A program made the position numbers and the translations under genes. Below the pieces are notes generated by a model, which ran no database searches, was not told the origin of the DNA, and saw nothing but the letters and a program-made list of their open reading frames with translations. DNA of 61,145 bases, filler included, from Basidioascus undulatus (taxonomy: Eukaryota): NCBI GenBank assembly GCA_000826855.1. It is 4 parts of 4 records of this genome, joined end to end, with 100 filler letters (N's around TTAATTAATTAA, not from the genome) between each part and the next. Parts side by side here need not be neighbours in the genome. Positions count along the whole stretch, not along the records: positions 30,660 to 45,839 come from JTLS01000656.1; 3 more parts are not named here. One strand, written 5' to 3'. Below are positions 30,660 to 45,839 of the stretch, piece after piece; the stretch's first letter is position 1, and each line of letters opens with the position of its first letter.

Positions 30660-30882
30660 GTATTGAAGTAGGAGGAGGAGGCGGAGGTGAGGGGAGAATA
30701 GACAAGGAGAGAGAGGGACGGAGGGCAGGTGCGGGTTCGCGTGAAAGGACGGCTCCGACGCTCTTTTCGAATACACACATCAGTTTCATATCGCTCTGTT
30801 TCGGTGTCATCGATCACCGCGCGCCCGCGCGCTGTCGACCACCATCTTCCTTCCCGTTTAAGCCCCCTTACTCCCCGCGCGG

Positions 30883-30920
30883 CCTCTTACCTCGCAACAC
30901 ACCTCTTACCTCGCAACACA
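30883..30920. repeat. Perfect 19-bp tandem duplication CCTCTTACCTCGCAACACA x2
   Basis: Copies at 30883-30901 and 30902-30920. Confidence 0.85.
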
Positions 30921-31557
30921 ATCACCTCCTCTCTATCCAGCGCCCATCGATCGTGATAGATACTTGCGAGCCCTATAACCTCACATTATTCATCTGCCCG
31001 AGAAGATCAATTACATTGCCGAGCGACTCGATTGCGGCTTGCTACGGCCTCGTTCGAACTCGGACATGGCCGCCTTTGAAACCGAAGAGCGACTCTTTTG
31101 AAAGGTCACTTCGGAAGGTTTCAACCCGATCAAATTCGTCCAATAATTATTGACGAAGCATGGGCGACGCTACACTGTCCCTCTGCTCAATCACGGCACT
31201 GCCTCGCAAGCAGCGGTCTTCGTTGACTTTCGCCGCCGAGGGCGCATTCTCTTCTCTCGCATCGCTTTTAGTCCACTGTACACTCTACCCTTCTGCCCTC
31301 TTTCATGCTGATAGTGCAACGAGCGTGTAAGGCATCCAAGCGACTTTCACAGGCCGGACATTTGCCAACTTGAGAAGGCGTTAAGTAGTCGTCAACAGTG
31401 CGACACGCGTTTCATTTGCCGGCGGCGCGCGTTGGCCAAAGCAAGACGGTCCGATCTAGCCCACTCAACCCTTCACTCGACCACCACGCACACTTGCCCC
31501 TGCTCCTCATCTTACCTTCCATCTCTCTACTCACGAACTTCGCGTACGCCGCCGCCT

Positions 31558-34051
31558 ATGGCGATCTCGCAGCTCTGGAGCCGGCCGTGTGTCCACCGCC
31601 AGCTCAAGAACAAGAACAAGAAGCCTTCCTTGGATCTCGCACGCCTCAAGCTCACCGAAGATCAACTTCGCTGCGTCCTGTCGCGCAAGCTCATCACCAA
31701 CTGGGTCCCGCGCCCCGTCGTCCGATACCTCTCGCTGCGCGCCGTTCGGTGCCCGTACACGCGCTGCATCCGCCACTACCTCCGCTTCGCCGACAACAAG
31801 GCGACGCGCCTGCACCTCAGACACGTACACGGCAACATCCTCGTCGCTAAGCCACACCTCGTCGCGAAGCGTAAGGAGCAGTTGCGGGAAGCGCAGCAGG
31901 CGAAGTTTGAGGTGGAGAAGGGGTCCAGGAAAGAGCGGCGACGGACCGTCGCCGCCGGCCGGGATGGGTTTGCTGAGGCTGGCCCAAGCTCGACAAGGTG
32001 CGTCCCGATTGTTTTCGGTGTGGCTAGAAAGACAGGACAGGGCTGAAGGGAGCTATTCTGATGGTTGCAGACGTAATGCTACTACCCAGTCACTCGAGCG
32101 GAGTGGCCCTTTGATCGCTGAGGACATTGCTGATGAGTGCGTTCTTGGAAGCGCATATTTCTTTCCGTCCAATCTGACCTTCGCTTCCCATAGTCCCTCC
32201 GCACGCCCTACACGCTCGCTCCGCCGCTCTGCCCGTAACGCTCGTCCCGGTCATCATCCTGAGCCTGCCTCCGCGCCCGTGAAGAAGCCGTTCACCCAGC
32301 GCAGATCGCCAAAGTGCCCGTATGGCGCCATCCTCGAGGCTACGTGCGTGTCTATCTTATTGGTAGTCCGCATTCAGCGCGAGCCGGGAACTCACCTCGC
32401 TTCTTTAACAGTGCTATGAATTCCGACTCCGAGCTTTGGGGTGAAACCTGGCGGATGGCATGGTTTCATCAGGGTCGCGCGAGTCACCCGCAGAAGCGGT
32501 GGCCAAAGAGGTGGCGTGACGTGGCGAAGAAGCTTATCCAGCTGTCTGATATGGATGAGGAAGAGTACGTCAGCAGTCTTCTGCTTCACCTCTCCTCTTC
32601 CGGTGGCTTACTGGCGATCAGAGTCGCCCGAGAAGCTCAGGCCGTACGCGAAGCGTACCCAAAAGTTTTACATTCGACCGCCGCGGATGCCGACAACTCC
32701 GATCCGTGCGCTGCCGTTGTTAAGCTAACTAAAGAGATCGACGCGCTTACCCTTCAAGCATTGTAGTCCCGCCAACGACTGGCAGCGCGACATTCTCACC
32801 ATCTTACGCTGTATGCTGAAGCGCAAGCCTAAGAAGCCGGTGCTGAAACGGAAACGAGACCCGGAGCCGGAGATCAAGTCTGAGCCGCAGGACGAAGTGT
32901 ATGCCCTGTGCTGCTAGATCGATTCCGTCTCTCAAGTTTCTTACACAAATCTACCCGTTGATTCTGCAGTGCTTTCGCGCCTCAACATGAGGAAGTACCG
33001 GCCTCGCAGTCGGCCGGCACTGCGTAAGTCCTTCGCTTTGATCGTCGGGAAGGCGCTGACATATCCCCTGCGTTCGACACTCACCACCCGCAGCAATCGG
33101 GAATCTCGCCCAACCAAGCGGGCGCGGAAAGCAGCACCGATGCCGAAGCCAGAGCCTGCATCAAAGTCGACCCCGGCGGCGTACGTCGTGCTTGGTTCTC
33201 GTTCTCAAGAGGCCGGTGGATCGCTCATTCTGCTATTCAATTGTCCCACCCACAGCTCGAAGAAGAAGGCCCCTGCTTCGGCGAAGACGACCGACCGCAA
33301 GCCCAACGCGCTGTTCGAGGCGTACAACTCTTCAAAGCGTAAGCGTAACGGCCCCTCCACCTCTGCTGGCCCTATGCCGCAGGCCGACGTCCAGTCCACT
33401 GCGCACGTAGGTCAGCCTGCCGCAACGGAGCAGGACAACGTTCTCGTGCAAGGGTGCGTGCTCGAGAATCTTCTCTAATGGCTTTGGAGGCTAAACATTT
33501 CTCCTTGCTATAGCACATCGCCCGAGCCTGATCTATACGCTGGCCGAGAATGGACTGAGTGGCCGGAGGCAAAGATCCCTCGCTGGTGCGTCGTGCATCG
33601 ATCAAGTCCTGAGCACACATGCTAAGGCGCGCCGAGTGTCTGTACGGGGACTTGTGCAGGCTCGACACTTTCCCGGGAGCAAATGACTTTTGGTGAGTCT
33701 GTCATCCAACGACGCCCTCTCGTGCAGCGAGTGACACGGGTCCTGCCTGCTGTCCTTCCCAGCGCTCCTCCGTCTCCACCCCGCAACGCCGCCACGTCCC
33801 ATTTCGACAGCATCGTCGCGCGCGCTCGCGCTCGCAGCCTCACGCCGTACGTCGCACCGTTGGCGTCTGCGCAGGGAGACGACGAGAACGTGTTCATCGA
33901 ACACAAACCGCTGCCGAACGTGACACCCGGCCTTCACTGGAACCCGGCCTTTCACGATCTTCCGGCGTCCGACCCGCCCGAGATGCTTTCGGACGTTGAG
34001 GGCTTACAGGACGAGGAGGAGCTGTCGGAAGCTTTTTCTGATGATTCTTAG
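31558..34051 (+). CDS. Hypothetical ~585-aa, probably nuclear protein with an atypical C2H2-like finger; 12 exons
   Basis: Open frame after splicing 11 GT-AG introns (31998-32070, 32137-32193, 32344-32411, 32565-32621, 32706-32766, 32899-32969, 33024-33093, 33181-33255, 33454-33513, 33586-33659, 33693-33762). Contains CPYTRC-x15-H-x4-H, basic NLS-like runs (KRKPKKPVLKRKR, PTKRARK, KRKR) and an acidic tail. Confidence 0.75.
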
Positions 34052-34692
34052 CTTTACTTACCTTGATATGAGCGTTTCTTCTGTTGTCTGGTTTGATGTG
34101 TACCTCCGATCTGTCTGCTGCAAGGCATTCAGGTTCCTCAGTACGTCGTGCCTTCTTCAGGGGATGAAATCAACATCGGACCGTTCGTATAATGAACATT
34201 GTAATTCATGGCCCCCGATTCTTGCACCGTACAGTGACATCGAATACCTCACAGACGGTTTCCACGCTTGCGCACTGGATAACTGGCTGCCTCAACCTGT
34301 CCATGGCTTTGCTGGCGGCTGGATTCATTCTTTGCCCATTTCTCTCTTTTCGCGGGTCCTGAGCACCGCGTGAGTGCACGCAACATTATTAAGTGTCCAC
34401 AAACGATCCAGAGGCAAGAGCTAAGTACTCGAGTCGCCCTGACTTGGCTTTATGCTGCTTCAACGCACACGGCGCGCATGCCGCTTGACCTGTATCCTCG
34501 CAGGCAACCATACTGGATAGATTCATCCCTTCATGGAATGCTGGCAGCTTGGAATTGAGAAAAGTTCAGCGCTTGTCAATCCCCAGACGGCAGGACGGCT
34601 CTCAGCCGAAAAAGTCCAAGGCTGCGTTGAGCTGCGTTGCACGTCTGCAAAATATGTTATTAAAGCCTCGATCACACCTTATTCATTGTAGG

Positions 34693-36195
34693 CTACATAT
34701 CGAACGACAGCAACCCCCCGAGTTCGCGTTCCACGGCGTCCTTCCCTTCCACCAAATCGCTTTCCCACAACGCCATGCCCAGGTCGCCGTTGCGGGCCTC
34801 ATTGACTTACTGGCCCAAACAATGAGGCGAGCATTCGGAAACGAGCGAAAAAGCGCCTCGCAGAACTCCTGATTCTGCTCGCTGATCCGGTAACGAAGCG
34901 AGTTTCAGGAAGCGCAGACGGGTGAAGTTGAAGACGCCGGGGAATGCTTCAGCCTGTGTAGCATTCGAGGGCTTCAGCAAAACCACAGGTAAAATATATC
35001 ATATCACAATGGAGCCAACAGAAAACATACCTCCCGCACAGAGTCAAAGCAGTTGAGCACTTCGAGCGAGTCATGCAAGCAAGTGGCACGGGCTATTGCA
35101 CCTCATGTCTGGGCTCCGCTGGGACACCACCCTTGGTAAAATCTGAAGCCTTCGACCAGTTTGGCAATGACCCGAGGCGGGTCCTCGCTCGGATGACCCC
35201 ATTTAACAGGGAGCTTCGTCAGCGGCGGGTCAGCCGCGGAGCGGAGGAAGTCGGCTGGGTCGCCGGCACTGCACTTGAGGTGGCGGAGATGCCGGCAAGA
35301 GGAGGAGGGAAGGTCCTTGAAGTGTCGTTTGAAGATGAGCCCTCGCGTGGCGACGAGAGCCAGTGAGGTGAGCTCTGGATGGGCCGAGAGGAAAGCTTGG
35401 AATACTGGAACATCGCCAATGGACATGTCCTCCGCCGCAAGCATGACTAAACCTTGAAAGACGATCAATAATGGACATTTTTGGTCCAAAGTGAGAAACT
35501 GCCCAAAAAGTGCTGCCCCGTAGAGAGCGACATGCTGCGCAATGAACTCGCAGATGCGATGATCGAACGCTGCACCAGGCCGGCGAGGAACGGAGCGTCC
35601 GTCAACAACGTGCCTCTCACCGAGAGCGATTCGACTTGGAGGAGCGGCTGCGTATTAGGATCCGCCGGCCACTGAGCGGAAGATATTAGCGGACCACCTA
35701 CGACGCTGATGTGCAGGTCAAGGTGCGCGAGTTGAGGAAAACACGACAAGGCTTCGATGAGCCGCGCGGCGACATTGACGTTGGCCAGGCCCAGACGGGT
35801 GATATCAATCGAGTTGGCCTTCAGACAGGGCCTCGAAGCCAGACGCTCGAGCAGCTTCACTGCAGCCTTCAGTCTCCCGAGCACGAGACTTACTTTGCTC
35901 TCGGATTGGACCAGACAGTGCGGGAAGGGGGTCCGCAAGCGGCGACCTGATTTCTCCAGACTTCAAGACTAGCTTGGAAATGTACTGGTCGAAATTTTCG
36001 GAAAAGGCGGGCTCATAGCGGGCTGAGGTTGACGTGGACTATAGCATAGAGCGTCGGGAGCACAAGGACGTGGAGAGTGCGGGCTGTGAGCGCCAGGGAA
36101 GGGAGACCGCGGGTTTTGAGGGTCCCGATGCACTTTATGATGAGCTCGTAGGGCAGCGAGAGGATAGTTGTGTGACACGGTGTGTTGGGAGACAT
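34693..36195 (-). pseudogene. Decayed F-box-like / LRR-like gene
   Basis: ILSLPYELIIKCIGTL...LPSLALTARTLHVLVLPTLY (basidiomycete F-box-like start) ends at a stop at 36013. Downstream Leu-rich segments (FPQLAHLDLHI, HPELTSLAL, FTRLRFLKL) lie in different frames without matching introns. Confidence 0.5.
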
Positions 36196-37983
36196 GATGG
36201 TGATGGTGGTGCTGGGCAAGGCGCAGAACAAGGCGGACTCGCATGCCATATCGTCGGGTGCACAGGCACAGCCTCCGCGGCCCGTCATCATGCACTGGCC
36301 GAACGCAGCTGACAGATCCAGGTCTGGGCCTAAGCTGTGGTCAAAATGCTATATGTATGGGAACTATTGAAAACAAGTGGTTGGTCTGACCAGATTCATC
36401 GTCTGTCTTCCTGCACGGCTCTGAGCTCTGAGAAACCTGCATTATATCTTTCACCGCTGGATGTACCAAGCTCCAAACTGAGGTTCAGGCCAGCAGGGTT
36501 GCTCTGATATCAGAGCCATCTTGATTCTTCACCATCGACAACGGTGCAAATGTGCGGACAGCAACCCACACCTCCGTACCTCCGTTGCGTACCAAAGTGT
36601 TCAGCGTGCCACCACGCGCCAAATTCAACGCCGCCGCTCCAATCCCATTCTTGTTAATTAATTCTTAAAAGGCAGTACCTTGCTCCACGTTACGCAAACG
36701 AAGTGCCACGCAGTTTCATTGATGACCTGTGTGCGCATAAGCTTTACCCAATTCCGTACTGCAGACTATCCTGTGAGACGCGTAGATGTAGGGTGGTGTG
36801 ATGGAAGACAGAAACATCCATGGGCTCGGAATCTGCTCATCTGCTCGGCATGGCCGAAATTCACCGCTGAACGACTAATGACTACTCGACCGCTGGTCGC
36901 GGTTCGGACTAGAACAGAAACGCTGTCACAGAGCGAGTCTAACTTCTCCCTTTATACTATACCCCAATGTCCACTTGAAAGTCTGGGAATCTTGATGCTT
37001 GCTTCACCCATCCTCTGCAACAAAACAGCCGTCTGAAGATCACAATCCGCAACCGCAACCTTCAAAACGGTGCGTCTTGGTACACGTTCAGCATTGTCAA
37101 GCTGCCATTATCCATATTCAACCGAATTTCTCAAGCATGGGTTGAATTCCGGAAGTGTCAGCTCTTTCAGATCGTGGATTGCATTCTGCTGCAAGCAGTC
37201 ACTTACCGTCCACGCCTGGGGCCGTTGGGCCGCGCGTTCGAGCCTGCTAAAACATTTCTGGACAGACCATATGCCTTGAGAGACGCTTAGAGCTTAATAT
37301 TCAGGACCTCGCCCAAGGTTTTACTCAGTGTGAACGGCAGAATTCGGCCGGCATAGGCGCGGTCAATTCAGTTTCAAACCACGTACAGGCCAAGGTCAAC
37401 GATCCTGCTTCTACAACGGAAATCTGAGCCTGAACGCCTTAAGACTGAAAGTGAAAGAACCTCATCATCTTCACATGGCGCAGAAGGGTCTAAGCAACTT
37501 AACATGGACCGACTGCAGGGCATGACGGGTGCACTTTAACGTACGGAACGAATATCAACATGGATCCACTTGCCCTGTCACAGTGAGTACAGCTCTAGAT
37601 ACCCCAAGTCCAAGATGAGGCGCATAAGGAACTGTCTTCCGCCCAGCATACGAAACAGCCTGCCCAAACAACCGAGTCTTGCTGGTGCGAAAGCGCCCGG
37701 TTAGTAGGCTTGTGCCGGATATCTGAACCAAGGGTCCGTTTTTTGCCATGAAGCTTCAATGCTTTGAAGAACGGGTACATTGAAGCAGAAGTGCGACACT
37801 GCTCAACTTGGCGAAATTGGGCGAAACAGCGGGCGTTCTGTTCCGCGACACGACCACGGGCCGAGGACCCTTCGGGGATCCAAGTTCACATCGGGTAAGG
37901 CTCGCTCGTACTCGCCGCCGGACGCGTCGCTGTTGACTTCACTCTTGACGCCCATCTGCCCATCCCGCACCCGCCAGCCCGGC

Positions 37984-38937
37984 ATGTCTTCCGCCCCGCC
38001 GTCGCCCTCCCCGACGCCGCTCTCTCTCCTCCGTCCGCCCATCTCCCCTGCGCCAGCTCTCCGGCAGGGCGTCGCCCTCGCGCGGGCCAAAGCCAACGCG
38101 CTCGCGCTCATCGTCTACTTTTTCGCTTCGAACTCTGGCCTTTGGCGCGCAGTCTTTGTCCGGTGGGCGAGGGGTGCGGGGTGGGCGGGCGAGGGCGTCT
38201 CCGCTGTTGGTGAGTCAAATCCATCCCTTGCTTTGGTCTTGTACGCCCGGCTGACGCGACACGCCAACCCCAACAGCGACCCTCCTCCCGCTCTTACTCC
38301 TCTTCAACTTCTTCCAAGCGCTCCTCACAATTGTCTTCCCTCCCCAACCCACCCCTGCCAACGCGCCATCTACTCCCTCCACGCCCTTTAGCCCCACCGC
38401 GCCGCACACTCCGACCCCGCTCTCCCCAGCCCAGCGCCGCGCCCTCGGCTTCGCGAACCTCCAAAAGTCATCGCCCAAAACGCGCGGGAGCCCCGTCCTC
38501 TCCCCCGAGCTGCCCATCATGCCCTCCAGCCCTGGCGGACGCAGCGGCAGCCCGCTCAAGAAGGGTGGCGCTGGCGTGGGGACGCCGTCACCCGCGGGGG
38601 CGGTCGTCCAGGTCCCGCCTAATACGCCCAGCACGCCCCTCAGGAACTTCCTCCGGCAGAGCGCGGGCGTGGGTGCCGGGACGTCTGGAACGCCGCTGGA
38701 GGCTAGTGTGGGAGGAGGAAAGCGCGAGGGGGAGGAGCCGGGGCGGGAGCTGAGTCCGCAGAGGGTGTGGATGGAGAGGCATGCAATCCGACCTCGTGAG
38801 TCTTCTTCTGCTCTTGGTTGCAATGCTGTGAATGTATGGGGGAGGGCAAGACTAACAGAGACCATTGGTGGTACGCACTTTGGATAGGACGGATCGACGG
38901 GCCAGAGCTGGAAAGGCTGTTGAAGAACCTTCAATGA
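37984..38937 (+). CDS. Possible nuclear-envelope membrane protein, POM34/TMEM209-like; 3 exons
   Basis: Two N-terminal hydrophobic segments (ALALIVYFF; LLPLLLLFNFFQALL), the motif LSPAQRRALG, an S/T-P-rich tail, and a last exon RIDGPELERLLKNLQ*. The family call rests on one short motif plus topology. Confidence 0.5.
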
Positions 38938-39418
38938 GCGGGCGCGGTTCATTTCGATTGGTCTTGCATGCACATGATATCGCACAGAATGAACGATATG
39001 CATGGCTTTTGCATTCGCTTCCATGCTCGAGTGCGCGCGGGTGGCCGACCAGCGGCTGGGACTGACGCTGACGGACTCACGAATCGGAGTGCATCTTCCT
39101 GTGGGGTTTTTCATTCGGGAACTTGGGACCGATGCGGCGGTTGACCTCCTCGTGCAGTAGAACTCTGCCAAATTGTATGACCACGCAGGTCGGCCTCGAC
39201 CCTGCTTCCTTTCCGCGCGGGCACCAACAAGCGCGAACCGAAGGAAAGCGCAACTGAATTGATGCATGTTGCGACTGTGGTTGTAAACGCACTGATAAGC
39301 CGAGTGAGGCGTTGTAGAACGAAGGGCATACGAGCTTAAGTTGTTCTTCCCACCAAAGCAGACATTGATAAGCCTCGCATCACACTCGCCATCAGAAAGC
39401 GCCTTGCATGCATGCATC

Positions 39419-41070
39419 TCACAACCCAGCGCGCTTGAGCTGCTTCAAGCACCACTGCCCGACCCTCTCAGGGGTGTAGTTGACCTCGACCAGCCTGTCC
39501 ACTCCGCTCCAATCCGCGATCTCGTGCGCGAGCGCCCAGCTCATCTGCTCGAGCACGTCGCTCGGCTCGAGCCTGACGCGGACGCGCAAGTCGGGGAGCT
39601 TGACAACGCCGCCCTCGAACGACCCGAGCGCGGTGAGCATCCCGCGGAAGGCGCGCATGTCGTTCGGGTCGAGGTGGAGCTGCGTGATCGCGTCGAAGAG
39701 GAACGCGCGCGCGGTGCAGAGCGCGAGGGGGTCTGAGTTGTGCTGGAAGTACTGCGAGCACTGTGGGGGGAGGGTGGGCACGATGACTTCATCGAAGAGG
39801 TTGACGAGGCCGGGCTGGGACACGCAGCTGATGCCGTGCTGGAAGGCCGTGAGGAGGGAGAGGCGTTGGAGGAAGCGGTGGAAGAGAGCATGGTTCTCGA
39901 CAGGTTGGACGGCAGAACGGGAGGGCTGAGGGTCAGGGTCCTGCGCGAGGAGAAAGCACGTCAATGTCGAGCAGATCGGTGATGGCAGGGTGAACGGGAG
40001 GAGGCTGCACTCACTTTCTGACCGTCCCCGTACTTGGCGGACGCAAGGTAGAGCGCGGCGCCCTCCCCGCCCTCCTTGTTCTTACGAACGTCCGTCTCCT
40101 TCATCTTGAACTTTCCCAAACAGGCGCGCAACGCGCGGAGCACATCCGAGGCGTGCTTGACGATCTACAGTCGCTTCTGGATCCGTCAGCCTCGTTTCAA
40201 GCAGACACTGCTCGCCAGTTCTCCAAGAAAGTACCGTACTAACATCCTGTGGAACGATTCCCGGAAAGTAGCGCAAGAGAACCGTGCCCTCCTCTTCGCA
40301 GATCTCGCACGGCCAGTCGATGTACGGCCACGCCTCCTCGCCCTCCGCGACGCTGGACGGGTCGTGCCAGAGCTCGGCTGGGACAGGCCCACGCGCTCGC
40401 GGCGAAGCGCGTTCGCCGGAATTCGAGGAAGACGGCCATGATGAGCGCACGTAGGAGGAGAGCGTCGGCAGGGAGGCGTACCGCGAGCGCGATGTCTTCT
40501 TGTGCGGCGCGAGGGACCGAGGCGTCCTGCGTCTTTTGGCGTCTGACTTGTTGAACCGGACGTAAACTGATTCACGTAAAGCTTGAGGCTTGCCTATTGG
40601 AACTGAAGAAAGAAGAAAACTCACTCCTCGTCATGACCTCCATTTGCCTGTGCGCGAGCTCCGCACCGTACATCTGCGCCTCCCGCAAATGGACGCGGTC
40701 CTCCTTGCGCATGCCGTCGTGCCCATCCGCATCGTGCCCAGTCATGCCGAGTGACTCGAGGTCCTCTTTCGCGGCATTTTTGAGCCAGTTCCCCCGCTTC
40801 TTCTCGGTCAACCCTTGAGGTTCCCGCGGCTGCTGTTTCGGTGCCGGTTCCGACGACTCCGCATTCGAGGTCGGGGATGATCGCTTCCTTTTCGAGCGCG
40901 TACGCGAAGCATGGGGAAGCTGAGGACTCGCGGGGAGGGATAGCGGAGTAGGAGGACACGGGAATTGAGAGGCGGAAGGTGCGGAGCAAGGCAGGGGGGA
41001 CTGGGAGGAGGCCGTCGGCGTGCGGCTCTGTGGGGGCGTAGGCAGTGCTGTCAAAGGTAACTGCAGGTAA
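39419..41070 (-). CDS. TET/JBP-like 2-oxoglutarate/Fe(II) dioxygenase (candidate nucleic-acid base oxidase); 5' end uncertain
   Basis: Introns at 40165-40243 and 39941-40014, and probably 40567-40624. Translation ...PCEICEEEGTVLLRYFPGIVP...AALYLASAKY...ITQLHLDPND...LTALGSFEGGVVKLPDLRVRVRLEPSDVL...ALAHEIADWSGVDRLVEVNY. HxD at 39668-39676, distal His at 39524-39526, Arg at 39494-39496. Confidence 0.78.
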
Positions 41071-42558
41071 AAGTACAATTTTCTACACTTTTAATTGAGA
41101 TGCGGTGCGAAAGAGGTACTCGTTTGGGAACCGCCTGGTTTCCGGTTTGCGTTCCAGGACATGCGTATCTTTAAGTCCTCCATCGAGAATGTTCTGTGCG
41201 CAAACCACGACGGCGATCACTAATGTTAGTAAGCGTTCAGAAGGAACAATTTATATATGGACATACAGTAAGCTACTTGGAATGGATGCGTTGAAGTCTT
41301 TGAGCGAGATGATGGTTTTTGGCGAAGAAGCAACGCGTGCACCGCGCGTCGATCGTTGACCTCTTTCGCCCATCTTCGCTTCTGCCTTTTGTCTCGCCAA
41401 TTTGCTGTCGCCTGCAATATCAATCGACTCAAACTCACCCGATCGATAGAACCGCTGCTCATGCCCTCTCACTCTTTTGGTTTCACATCCCTCATTTCAA
41501 CGCCCACGATTTGCCTCTTTTACGTCCTCATCTCGAACATCCTCACCCTCGTCCTCCTCCTAGCTCCGCCATCGCCTCCCATAACGTTTCGTGCATAGGA
41601 AACTCTGGAGCCTGGCGGGCGACGCCGGGACGAGCGCACTGGGCATTACTGGGCTGGTGCATGTGCGTTGGCGACCAAGCCCGCGGAGAGAGGAGAGACA
41701 TGGAGGCGGGCGGGGTAAGTCGATGGACCTCTAGGTGTGGAAACGGTTGCATGGTGTATCGAGGTGTTTGCACTATCATGCACACCCTAAACCTAACTAA
41801 ACCTAACGCCACCCTTCCCTCCTGCGCAAAATTCGCGTCCGCAAACGCCTCGGTGCCGTTCGTGAGTGACGATTCAAGCTCTTCATTCCATGCTTCCGCG
41901 GCAGTCTTTTTATTCCCTGGCGCCTCGCGTGCTCGCGTCGTTGTGCACGCGCCCGCAATTCCAAGCGGCATCTGCACACCGGCGGAGGGCCTTGCGGCTG
42001 CACGACGGGCTGGCGCACCGTCACCGTCCAGGAGCTGCGCAAATCTCATCATATATATGAATTGCAAAGAGTTGCAGACGAGGAAACGACCGTCCTGTTG
42101 TTCCCATCTCAACTTCCCATTCTCGATCGCCTCGACTCTACTTTCTCGCTTTCAATCTCTTTCGCACCTCCGACATTTCCTTCCTAATTTTCGCCATCAA
42201 GTGTATAATTTCCATTATCTTACATTTTCCACGATAGAAGCCTATCTTTTGCTTGATTTAACGGCTAGCTTGCTTGGACTGCAGCGCCGTCTCGGCGTCG
42301 ATGGCGCAGGGTCACTGATGCGATTCATCAAAGAGAGTTATGTTCGCTCAGCCCCAAACAGGACCAGCACAACATTCCCAAGTTTCCCGTGCTGACAGAG
42401 AGGTCCCCACGACCACCTATTCTTCCGGGTCCCACAGCGTCCCTTCAACGATGCGATCAACGACTGAACGTAACTCCCCCTCGCCATACGTCAGGAGGAC
42501 CACCTTGACTTGGAAAGCTTCAGGCAAGGCCTTTCTTATCATGTCATGCACTTCCACT

Positions 42559-43211
42559 TCAATATATCCCCCTCCTGTAGCGCCTCACCGACGTCGACGC
42601 CAAGAATGAGCGTGCGCAGGGCAGGAGCGCCAACCAGGAATCGCGAGACGCCCAAAGACGCCGGGGAGGTATGGCTCGTAAAGCACGTCGCTGGAACAAA
42701 CAGCAACATGAGTGAGGGAAGGCATTCCGAGGACCTTGTCCAACTCGCGCGGACGATAGAAATCGATATCCGATACAACAAGGCGCTTGACGTCTCCGAC
42801 GCATGTTATGACACTTTGGAAAAGAAATAGAAGGGGAAGGAGCACTCTTCCAGAGCGAGAAATTGACCGACGGTTGATCGTGACTGCAGAGGCGCCGCAT
42901 ATTGTACATCCTTCGAAGAAGAACGTCACGCTCGCGATCGAAACTGTCGCCGTTTGGCAGGCGGGGGCGAGTCAACGCGAGTAGCTGCGGACTCCTTTCC
43001 GCGGTGTCGACGAGATTCAATATCTGCTTCTCTTGTGACAGGGCGATAGATCTGTAGAGCAGGGGCTTTGCAAGCGCATTGAAAGAACGCGATACGAGGC
43101 AGAGCGATTCAAGAGTGGCGGAGTCCCCGGTGTACGCGAGTGGATGCGACGGAGCGCCGGCTCGGCGATGATGAGCGAGTGAATCTCGGGGAAGAGGCGC
43201 GGGAAGACCAT
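42559..43211 (-). pseudogene. Frameshifted F-box-like gene
   Basis: MVFPRLFPEIHSLII in one frame continues as SATLESLCLVSRSFNALAKPLLYRSIAL in another frame, with no intron between them. The 3' limit is approximate. Confidence 0.55.
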
Positions 43212-44111
43212 TTGAATATATTTTGGCCGAATTGGAATGGCAATTGATATTGCTGGTGCAGAGAGCGACTTGGTGGCGAGGGGACGCGGAATGAGATGGT
43301 GCCAGTGATGGTTCAGAGACAAGGACGCCCTGGGAGCGTGCTGCGGTTGTGAACTGTCTTGCGCTAGCCCCATGTCGGTTCAAAGGTCAATTTCATGGGA
43401 GCATGCCATCGCGATTCTAAATGCTCACTACTTGCTTCTGAAAGTGAGCAGATTGTTGTGAGAGCCTCGCCAATACACATGCTCTCTCGGCGACGCTTTT
43501 TATCCGCAAGACGGAATGTTTGCGCGGATCGTTCGATTTGAACTCGTCCCACTTTGATTGTTCGAGTCTTTAACAGTACTTGCCAGTGCGTAGACGTAAT
43601 GTGCCCTGAGATCAGCTCACCCCGACAGGTAGACTCGCTCGAGAGAGCCACTTTGCACGGTGGGGACAACTTGCGATAGCACGCTGCTTCTAGGATGTAG
43701 CCATTAGTATTTTCACCTAGATTCCATTCACTCGATGAATCATCATGTGAAGGCGGACTTTGGCGCCACGATGCATGAACGTTCACCTCTGGACGAAAGC
43801 CAAAGTGCACCACTTACTATACGAAGGCTAAACATTGTATACATCGTTTTATTTCTCGGGTCTTGCCATCATGCCTCGAGAGCTCGGGCGGAAGCTGATG
43901 GCGTGACCGATCCGCTCTACACATGTCTTTCAACTCCAGAACATCCCCACTTCTGCATCCCTTGTCCTCTTTAATCCATGCCACCCCCAGCAAAATCCAC
44001 CAGCCCCTTATGATTCTCACAAAACGGGACGCCATGGCGATCTTGGTCCTGGGCCGGGATCTGAAGTGCGCGGCAGTCGTATTGCCATTCATAGTACCGG
44101 TCACAATTGGC

Positions 44112-45165
44112 ATGATCGCCTGGGATGCGGTTCAGTACTGCCATTGCTCCTGTCATCGCTCCTGCCATCGCTCCTGCCATCGTTCCCACATTCAGCTTCC
44201 GCGCGAAATTTTGACCCTCAGCATCAAGGACCCTCAACCTACCTGTTTCAAATGTGGCAACGAAAAGCGGACGCTGGCCGATCGGTGCAGAATGTTTGCA
44301 AACGTGGCCTTGACTTCTCGTCTATTTAACCAGGTGGGCAGTGCTCATGAATACATATCACAAGTTGTTATAACTTGAACTCAAGGTTTTTTACAGCTGG
44401 CCACAGCTTTCTCTACTCGTCTCCGGCGGTCGTCTCCGACTCCGCGGCGTCCCTCTTCGCCCGCATACTTGCGCGCTTGGAAAAATCGAAGCGTGGGCGC
44501 ACCCGGATGTCGCACTTATCCCACTAGGGTCGGGTCTCACAGCGGGCACAGGCAATTCAGTGGTGGTCACGTACGACCCCTCAATCCTCGAGCTGGTGAA
44601 CTCGAGTAGCGACGTGACCGCCTTCGACGATGTTGTGGCAGCGAAGTGGCACCCGAGGGCGCTGCTGCCCTCGGGGATGACTCCGGGCGAGCTATGCAGG
44701 CTCGTCCTTGCCTGCGACGGCTACTCCTTGAGGTATTCCAACTTCCCCAAGGTAGATGAATCTGCGGTGGTGGCCGCGTAGAGGAAGATAGGGACACTCA
44801 GTAAGGTACTGGCAACTCACGGCCAATGGATCGAGACGAGTGCCCAGCTCCGTACCGACACCGGCTCCACTAGGTGTCGACACAGCCCCTTGGTCCTCAG
44901 ACACACCCCTCCTCGCTCGAGATCTGGACTGTGTTGACCGCCCTTGTCCGGCCTTACGTTGTACTCGTGCATTCACGGAAGAGTTCAAAAAGAGGACGGA
45001 TCACTTTCATTAGAAGAGGAATGCAGTTTATGGCTGGAAAAATCTTTTGAGAGCGCCTTGGATGTGGGTGGTGGATGGAAGCAGGTTGATGATCAAGCGT
45101 TGCGTAGGATGCATGCCTTGAGTTGCGGAGCATGGATTTGGACTGAGAGTAGTTTTGTATGGTAA
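44112..45165 (+). pseudogene. Probably decayed F-box-like gene
   Basis: IQLPREILTLSI...MFANVALTSRLFNQ|LATAFLYSSP (F-box-like); later segments are broken by stops or frame changes. Limits are approximate. Confidence 0.4.
44138..44185. repeat. 12-bp minisatellite CTGCCATCGCTC x4 (imperfect)
   Basis: Units start at 44138, 44150, 44162 and 44174. Confidence 0.85.
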
Positions 45166-45735
45166 ACAACCAGCTTAGTGTTGTTTCTTCTCGGGCGTTG
45201 TCATGAACGAAGATGTAGGATCGAACCCCGAAGGCGGGGATCTCTCTGAAATTTTACAGCATCTCCGTGGCTCATCGGTAGTTGTGATTTCTTGATTACG
45301 GAGGGCAGCTGAAAGAGGCTCTTGAACTGATACTGTCGGCTAAAAAGAAATGGCAAAAGCCGAGCACGCTTTGAACATGGAGAGGGGCGAAAGGAAAAAT
45401 GACCACTGCAGGGCTTGATCCTACGACATTTTGCGTCTACCAACTGAGTTAAGCAGCCTTTGTAATAAGTTCAAATAAATAAGTAATTCTTAGTATCGCA
45501 GAGGCATACCAAGGAATGGGGACAGTTCAGCTTTACCGTACTCTAAACGTTTTGTGGTGTGTAAACGTCCATGGAGAGAAACAGACCTCGCCAGACTTCC
45601 ACGTCGAAACGTCGGCTGCAAGCGCCCCTTCCCCGTCGGCAATTCGGCCCGAACCTGCAACGGGCTTCTCCTGCAATCCCTTGCTCCTGCCCTTGCCTCT
45701 TCCATCCCCCGCCCTCCCAGCCTCCCAGATTCAGC

Positions 45736-45839
45736 ATGTCCGCCTACGGCCCGCCCGCCTCCCGGGTCCCCTCCGCGCAACTGCCCCCGCTCACTCTCCC
45801 GCTCACCACCACCACCTCCTCCCCGCACACGCACCTGAC
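45736..45839 (+). CDS. Possible start of a gene truncated by the contig end
   Basis: ATG after a pyrimidine-rich leader; MSAYGPPASRVPSAQLPPLTLP... with high GC3, open up to the gap. Confidence 0.3.

Follow-up and report, generated by a model that had tools for sequence, protein, structure and literature searches.

The stretch of DNA considered here (the window: 61,145 nucleotides, filler included, from the Basidioascus undulatus assembly GCA_000826855.1) is made up of four pieces, each about 15 kb long, with runs of N between them. The third piece, positions 30660–45839 (JTLS01000656.1), carries on its minus strand, between 39419 and 40745, a four-exon coding sequence of 371 codons that resembles the genes of the TET/JBP dioxygenases. 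This gene is real, spliced and transcribed. Its predicted product has a mass of about 41.7 kDa and an isoelectric point of 8.1. No frameshift or stop interrupts the codons in any of the four exons, and the G+C content of third codon positions (GC3) is 0.85 in frame, while the two other frames give 0.64 and 0.46; the in-frame value also exceeds those of five housekeeping frames that the window contains (0.61–0.79). The motifs listed in a preliminary description of the locus all occur in minus-strand frames where that description placed them, with PCEICEEEGTVLLRYFPG in exon 2, ALYLASAKY in exon 3, and HLDPND, GGVVKLPDLRVRVRLEPSDV, AFLFDAITQLH, ALAHEI and DRLVEVNY in the last exon.

The exon structure was drawn from sequence and then compared with contigs of three public runs (X1, X2 and X3) aligned to 30660–45839; X1 and X2 are genomic, and X2 and X3 share a sample. 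The drawing gave GT..AG introns 2 and 3 as listed in Table 1, and a further intron with two in-frame acceptors, 40567–40624 or 40543–40624. The introns are retained in X1 and X2, and a 1372-nt contig of X3 skips 74, 79 and 58 bases whose borders are exactly those of the predicted introns, with the 40567–40624 option used; at all three joints the CT..AC ends on the plus strand correspond to GT..AG on the minus strand. We read X3 as RNA-derived because it covers the 15-kb piece patchily and contains five GT..AG skips in two genes. The spliced open reading frame of the preliminary description is thus borne out by a spliced, transcript-like contig.

Table 1. Features of the TET/JBP-like gene, in window coordinates
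Feature	Position	Strand	Basis or remark
Spliced transcript-like contig (X3, record 20, 1372 nt)	39465..41047	-	pieces 39465-39939, 40014-40164, 40244-40566, 40625-41047
5' leader, probably untranslated, 302 nt	40746..41047	-	no in-frame ATG; flat GC3
Exon 1, coding part, residues 1-40 plus one base	40625..40745	-	ATG at 40745
Intron 1, 58 nt, GTGAGT..CAG	40567..40624	-	X3 joint 40566->40625
Exon 2: basic, Ser-rich linker with KRRR (residues 51-54), CEICEEEGTVLLRYFPGIVPQD strand region	40244..40566	-	X3 and sequence
Intron 2, 79 nt, GTTAGT..TAG	40165..40243	-	X3 joint 40164->40244
Exon 3, 50 codons, contains ALYLASAKYGDGQK	40015..40164	-	X3 and family hidden Markov model
Intron 3, 74 nt, GTGAGT..CAG	39941..40014	-	X3 joint 39939->40014 (cut +1)
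Exon 4, C-terminal 173 residues plus stop; helical insert and core double-stranded beta-helix	39419..39940	-	Pfam, relatives, AlphaFold 2
HLDPND: predicted Fe(II) ligands His287 and Asp289; Asp292 at the position that reads N4 of 5-methylcytosine	39659..39676	-	alignment and family profile
Predicted distal Fe(II) ligand His337 (ALAHEI)	39524..39526	-	column H139
Arg347 (DRLVEV), at the alignment position of the family's 2-oxoglutarate-binding Arg	39494..39496	-	alignment, profile

The most likely start codon is the ATG at 40745, and translation would not begin near 41070. This is the first in-frame ATG, the RTRSKRKRS frame having none between the 5' end of the contig (41047) and 40745, and GC3 in the leader is flat over the three frames (0.60/0.65/0.68). 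Since there is no in-frame ATG upstream and the leader has no codon bias, the RTRSKRKRS stretch, which had been taken for a basic N terminus, is probably untranslated. A second basic run, KRRR at residues 51–54, lies within the confirmed coding sequence. Two short ATG-to-donor candidates (41462 and 41582) for an upstream coding exon in the RTRSKRKRS frame were considered, both of them speculative, and were rejected: where the X3 contig stops, at 41047, it shows no loose end, and codon bias is absent from the leader. The leader contains upstream ATGs at 40912 (34 codons), 40864 and 40777 (11 codons); the TGA of the frame that begins at 40777 overlaps the main ATG as ATGA, an arrangement that could permit control of translation by termination and reinitiation. 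By eye, an AT-rich, TATA-like stretch is seen at about 41067–41096, just upstream of the 5' end of the contig. Farther upstream of the transcript, at 41267–41766, lies a separate X3 contig (574 nt, depth 20.9) in which no frame belongs to a family; it may be a divergent transcript or a gene of its own.

Sequence comparison and structural modeling support the proposal that the gene product is a TET/JBP-type dioxygenase dependent on Fe(II) and 2-oxoglutarate (2OG), a divergent member of a known family. A phmmer search with the last exon (173 aa) against 1.84 billion proteins (cluster representatives) found 39 relatives at E ≤ 1e-3, and 37 of them carry Pfam Tet_JBP (E ≤ 0.01). The best relative has an E of 1.3e-8, too strong a likeness to arise by chance; none falls below 1e-10, and identity is 27–43% over about 90 core residues; among the 1.84 billion representatives no relative exceeds 43% identity, even in the core. 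Ten of the 39 were looked up, and those with names come from Schizophyllum, Rickenella and Ceratobasidium. In the ESM Atlas, 27 of 30 matches are Tet_JBP clusters, mostly from Basidiomycota. Longer proteins containing a homologue of the last exon were not found at E ≤ 1e-3, a null result that is itself weak evidence. Directly against Pfam Tet_JBP, the last exon scores 19.5 bits (E 6e-4), over profile positions 86–147 of 164 only, in the C-terminal half of the profile.

A family profile and hidden Markov model (HMM) were made from the rows of 27 relatives; with the row of the window protein added, these form a 28-row alignment in which the last exon is 19–26% identical to its relatives. Against the HMM built without that row, the spliced protein scores 97.8 bits in one colinear alignment over exons 2–4, and the last exon alone 91.4 bits. 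Exons 2–3 are colinear with HMM positions 56–139, exon 2 with positions 56–92, and may correspond to the N-terminal strands that precede the core in the family ('DG..l.YLP' and 'G...l...W..G'), a strand motif that NgTet1 of Naegleria shows. When the profile of the 27 relatives plus the window protein was compared with the Protein Data Bank (PDB), it matched CcTet of Coprinopsis cinerea at 1e-24 and NgTet1 at 1e-12.

The predicted fold points the same way as these searches. Modeling covered the C-terminal 173 residues, and the AlphaFold 2 model obtained with the 28-row alignment has a predicted local distance difference test score (pLDDT) of 84.8 and a predicted TM-score (pTM) of 0.79. Foldseek against the PDB places chains of CcTet first (E 5e-7, TMq 0.67) and NgTet1 next (E 3e-4, TMq 0.66), the two proteins filling ranks 1–15, with CMD1 also among the matches. 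A VIA search, which is independent of Foldseek, again gives CcTet (Z 11.5; 161 residues aligned; root-mean-square deviation 3.6), NgTet1 (Z 11.2) and TET2 (Z 8.6), followed by AlkB (Z 8.1), FTO and prolyl hydroxylases, all at Z ≤ 8.1. Solved TET structures therefore lie nearer to the model than other 2OG oxygenases do; the best match, which might have been a non-TET oxygenase, is a TET protein, and CcTet, NgTet1 and TET2 all stand above AlkB.

As the preliminary description held, the catalytic residues, namely the HxD...H facial triad for Fe(II) and the Arg for 2OG, are intact by alignment. In the 28-row alignment, at least 90% of rows agree at columns H89, D91 and D94 and all 28 at H139, and the window protein has all four residues. 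The family profile aligns HLD with HRD 326–328 of CcTet (His326 and Asp328) and HLDPND with HKDNLD of NgTet1, the spacing of the last two being the same, and Arg347 of the last core strand (DRLVEVNYT), whose column is also conserved, matches both the family consensus qRisivhFT and ERYCMAHF of CcTet.

The neighborhood of the triad also bears on the likely substrate. The position of Gly331 in CcTet is held by Asn1387 in hTet2, Asp234 in NgTet1 and Asp350 in CMD1, and a residue at this position is described as hydrogen bonding to the N4 atom of 5-methylcytosine (5mC) and as clashing with the N6-methyl group of N6-methyladenine (6mA) (PMC11040006). In the profile alignment, the window protein has Asp at CcTet position 331 and Gly at position 337, so that neither of the CcTet determinants for 6mA, Gly331 (or Ser) and Asp337, is found in it. 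The HxE hallmark of PE-type enzymes, which is treated together with the roles of positions 331 and 337 of the AG type (CcTet-like enzymes, bifunctional for 5mC and 6mA) in section 3.4 of PMC12730594, is not found either; the window protein has HLD. Because Asp occupies the N4-reading position, as it does in NgTet1, the pocket looks conventional for 5mC, and we predict that it is canonical for that base and not CcTet-like for 6mA. The earlier suggestion of an altered specificity finds no positive support, the Asp after HxD being that of NgTet1 (Asp234) and CMD1 and not the Gly331 of CcTet.

Comparison with known systems sharpens this picture. CcTet (PDB 7vpn, 7w5p, 8jkk) is both the best structural and the best family-profile match, and it shares with the window protein a helical insert, HxD, the distal His and the Arg and, it appears, a strand of 'YLP' type near the N terminus, but the two are only 13–16% identical in structural alignments and differ at positions 331 and 337 as just described. 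CcTet, moreover, comes from a family of 46 copies that is associated with Kyakuja (PMC12730594, section 4.2), whereas the window gene has neither a second copy at ≥80% identity nor a nearby transposase. NgTet1 (PDB 4lt5, 5cg8), the second-best fold match, has the same HxDxxD arrangement, and both proteins are compact and have no Cys-rich or CXXC domains; NgTet1 is 16–19% identical to the window protein, which adds a basic, low-complexity N terminus of about 120 residues and a longer helical insert. Of the metazoan TET1–3, TET2 is the third-best fold match. Its metal and 2OG residues are those of the window protein, and the N4-reading position is polar in both (Asn1387 in TET2, Asp in the window protein; PMC11040006). 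Unlike the metazoan proteins, the window protein is far shorter, with no Cys-rich domain, large low-complexity insert or CXXC domain.

No transposase-type Pfam match occurs in the 110 stop-to-stop frames of at least 60 aa in 30660–45839 (sets of 4, of 38 at E ≤ 0.1 and of 68 at E ≤ 0.05, six frames of 60–99 aa that overlap the gene being excluded from the last set), which agrees with the absence of a visible transposase noted in the preliminary description. Four pairs of flanking inverted repeats were found, of 21–28 nt and 74–81% complementary, and no pair encloses the gene in a sensible way. Copy number was judged from other contigs at ≥80% identity in the two genomic runs. Neither run contains a second copy of the gene at that threshold; each provides one unspliced contig over 30670–44598, and depth is flat at the single-contig baseline over 39262–41791 in both. 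The gene region is thus single-copy by this measure, where the preliminary description had allowed that all copies might lie inside Kyakuja/Dileera/Zisupton (KDZ) elements. Nor does any of the window's four pieces contain another TET copy. The long genomic contigs differ from the window over 30670–44598 at one position, 38195, where both runs have T and the window G.

The 15-kb piece holds few recognizable host genes. The neighbor at 37768–38887 (+), earlier described as POM34-like, has no Pfam match at E ≤ 0.1; an X3 contig at 38342–38796 indicates transcription within it. Where decayed F-box genes had been described, a single weak F-box match was found in the piece (36016–36348, minus strand, E 0.025). 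A second spliced gene is seen in X3 on the plus strand at 31482–32194, with GT..AG introns at about 31996–32068 and 32137–32193 and frames without a Pfam family. On the other side, multi-copy sequence lies 1.3–4.8 kb upstream of the transcript, at 42298–43309 and 44322–45839, and X3 shows other transcribed units between the gene and these repeats. The nearer block has a depth of about 1.4–3 times baseline and several differently joined contigs; the frame at 42562–43386 (−), of 275 aa, is F-box-like by eye and has no Pfam match at E ≤ 0.1. Within the farther block, 44322–44931 is present in many copies (summed depth up to 481 versus a baseline of 18, up to about 25-fold; 8–12 contigs), and the signal continues to 45839. 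Variants in 44322–44931 fall almost only at every third base, a pattern that suggests purifying selection on a protein-coding family of many copies; its frames 44374–44781 (+) and 44391–44720 (−) gave no Pfam match and no Atlas match.

The other pieces of the window carry ordinary housekeeping genes: MCM5, ETF-alpha, ATG16 and a fungal transcription factor. ATG16 is nearest to Wallemia (62%) and Tilletiaria (57%), over 36–39% of the query. For MCM5, the best of the proteins of at least 680 aa among 120 listed, a set without Agaricomycetes and Wallemia, are from Trichosporonales (only 66–67%); the MCM5 exon by itself was too conserved to place the taxon. These comparisons mark the source as a basidiomycete that lacks near annotated relatives.

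We think it rather probable that the locus is a functional, transcribed, single-copy basidiomycete gene for a 371-residue TET/JBP-family dioxygenase that uses Fe(II) and 2OG. Its behavior is that of a host gene and not of an active transposon passenger; that it has a host function is something we infer. Several observations weigh against this reading. The RNA origin of X3 is likewise something we infer, contrary to the label 'DNA?' on the record of that run. The score of the last exon against Pfam Tet_JBP lies below the cut-off of 34.9 bits, and exons 2–3 alone are marginal against the family HMM, with 3.9 bits versus at most 3.0 in 200 shuffles. In a phmmer search of PDB sequences, the best match of the last exon alone was an unrelated pentatricopeptide protein at E 0.45; because the last exon by itself finds no solved structure, the sequence link between the gene and CcTet is transitive or structural. 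The structural model was itself built from an alignment of TET/JBP relatives. At the CcTet Asp337 position (Thr or Ser in conventional TETs) stands Gly. Two near-invariant residues of the family have changed as well: PGD is PSD, and an Asn that at least 90% of the 28 rows have six residues ahead of the His is Asp. The second of these changes is the divergence at AFLFDAITQLH that the preliminary description had noted, and it is real; metazoan TETs likewise have Asp six residues before the His. The flanks that were inspected extend only 5.1 kb on the transcript side and 8.8 kb on the 3' side of the gene.

The flanks matter most for the idea that the gene is still a passenger of an old or large DNA transposon (of KDZ, Plavaka, hAT, Harbinger, EnSpm, IS3EU or Helitron type), whose transposase lies beyond the 15-kb piece or has decayed past recognition, and for which the enzyme erases silencing marks. 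In Pucciniomycetes, Agaricomycetes and Pezizomycetes, TET/JBP genes are described from DNA transposons of 11 lineages (Kojima 2025, PMC12730594), and CcTet itself is considered transposon-derived in the same source. The nearest relatives of the window gene are from the Agaricomycetes, where such genes expanded, and the multi-copy sequence upstream and the scarcity of recognizable host genes in the piece fit a passenger as well. We nevertheless hold this to be unlikely. The transposon-encoded enzymes (PU, AG and PE types; PMC12730594) belong to the same family and the same phylum as the window gene, but for that gene no transposase or terminal repeats were found in the 15-kb piece and no second copy at ≥80% identity in the genomic runs, and its product has neither the PE hallmark HxE nor the AG-type Asp337. 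The best of the flanking inverted repeats reach 81% over 21–28 nt, depth is that of a single copy, codon bias equals or exceeds that of the housekeeping genes, and other transcribed units separate the gene from the repeats.

If the protein does have the TET/JBP fold, it might still act on another substrate or by another chemistry: thymine hydroxylation like JBP, 6mA demethylation like CcTet, oxidation of 5-methylcytosine in RNA, or formation of a CMD1-like adduct. Its strong divergence over the last exon, the changes at two near-invariant positions and the Gly at the Asp337 equivalent would suit such an activity, CMD1 likewise has Asp at the N4-reading position (PMC11040006), and diverged fungal types may go beyond canonical TET chemistry (PMC12730594, section 4.2). 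Against this, an Asp after HxD is said to favor 5mC and to clash with 6mA (PMC11040006), both CcTet determinants for 6mA are missing, the Arg aligned with the 2OG anchor is retained, and the top structural matches are 5mC oxidases; we consider a different activity less probable still than a passenger origin. Of all the readings, we give least credence, and very little, to a relic that is still transcribed but has lost its catalytic activity. A pseudo-enzyme could carry replacements such as those of Asn by Asp and of Gly by Ser seen here at near-invariant positions, and the upstream ATGs of the leader could limit translation, but the four metal and co-substrate residues are intact, the reading frame is undamaged over all 371 codons, the in-frame GC3 is very strong and the predicted fold is confident.

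For a functional TET/JBP dioxygenase, the residues suggest how it might work. His287, Asp289 and His337 would hold Fe(II) and Arg347 would anchor 2OG; a 5mC flipped out of the DNA would be recognized by Asp292 at its N4 amino group and oxidized to 5-hydroxymethylcytosine, possibly further; and the basic KRRR linker would bring the protein to the nucleus. The product is most likely a nuclear oxidase of 5mC in DNA. We put forward more tentatively, as a possibility that we would not yet favor, that the gene is a transposon-derived TET/JBP gene captured by the host, a single-copy nuclear 5mC oxidase regulated by upstream open reading frames, in a basidiomycete without a close sequenced relative. 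The domestication raised in the preliminary description is plausible, if unproven. Should the whole genome reveal a neighboring transposase or numerous diverged copies, it would be one more passenger gene. No published transposon-free fungal TET was found in titles, in the openings of abstracts or in the wording of PMC12730594, and one may still exist.

The TET/JBP enzymes of fungi have been known chiefly as cargo that transposons carry in many copies, and the gene described here widens the sequence range of the family. A single-copy, expressed gene with a 5mC-type pocket that is predicted to be canonical, and with no linked transposase, would offer a simpler genetic handle, there being one gene to delete, and could show whether TET oxidation serves the regulation of the fungus's own genome rather than the benefit of a transposon. 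If the gene has indeed been captured by its host, it would represent active DNA demethylation encoded by a fungus itself, outside the catalogued transposon families of Pucciniomycetes, Agaricomycetes and Pezizomycetes.

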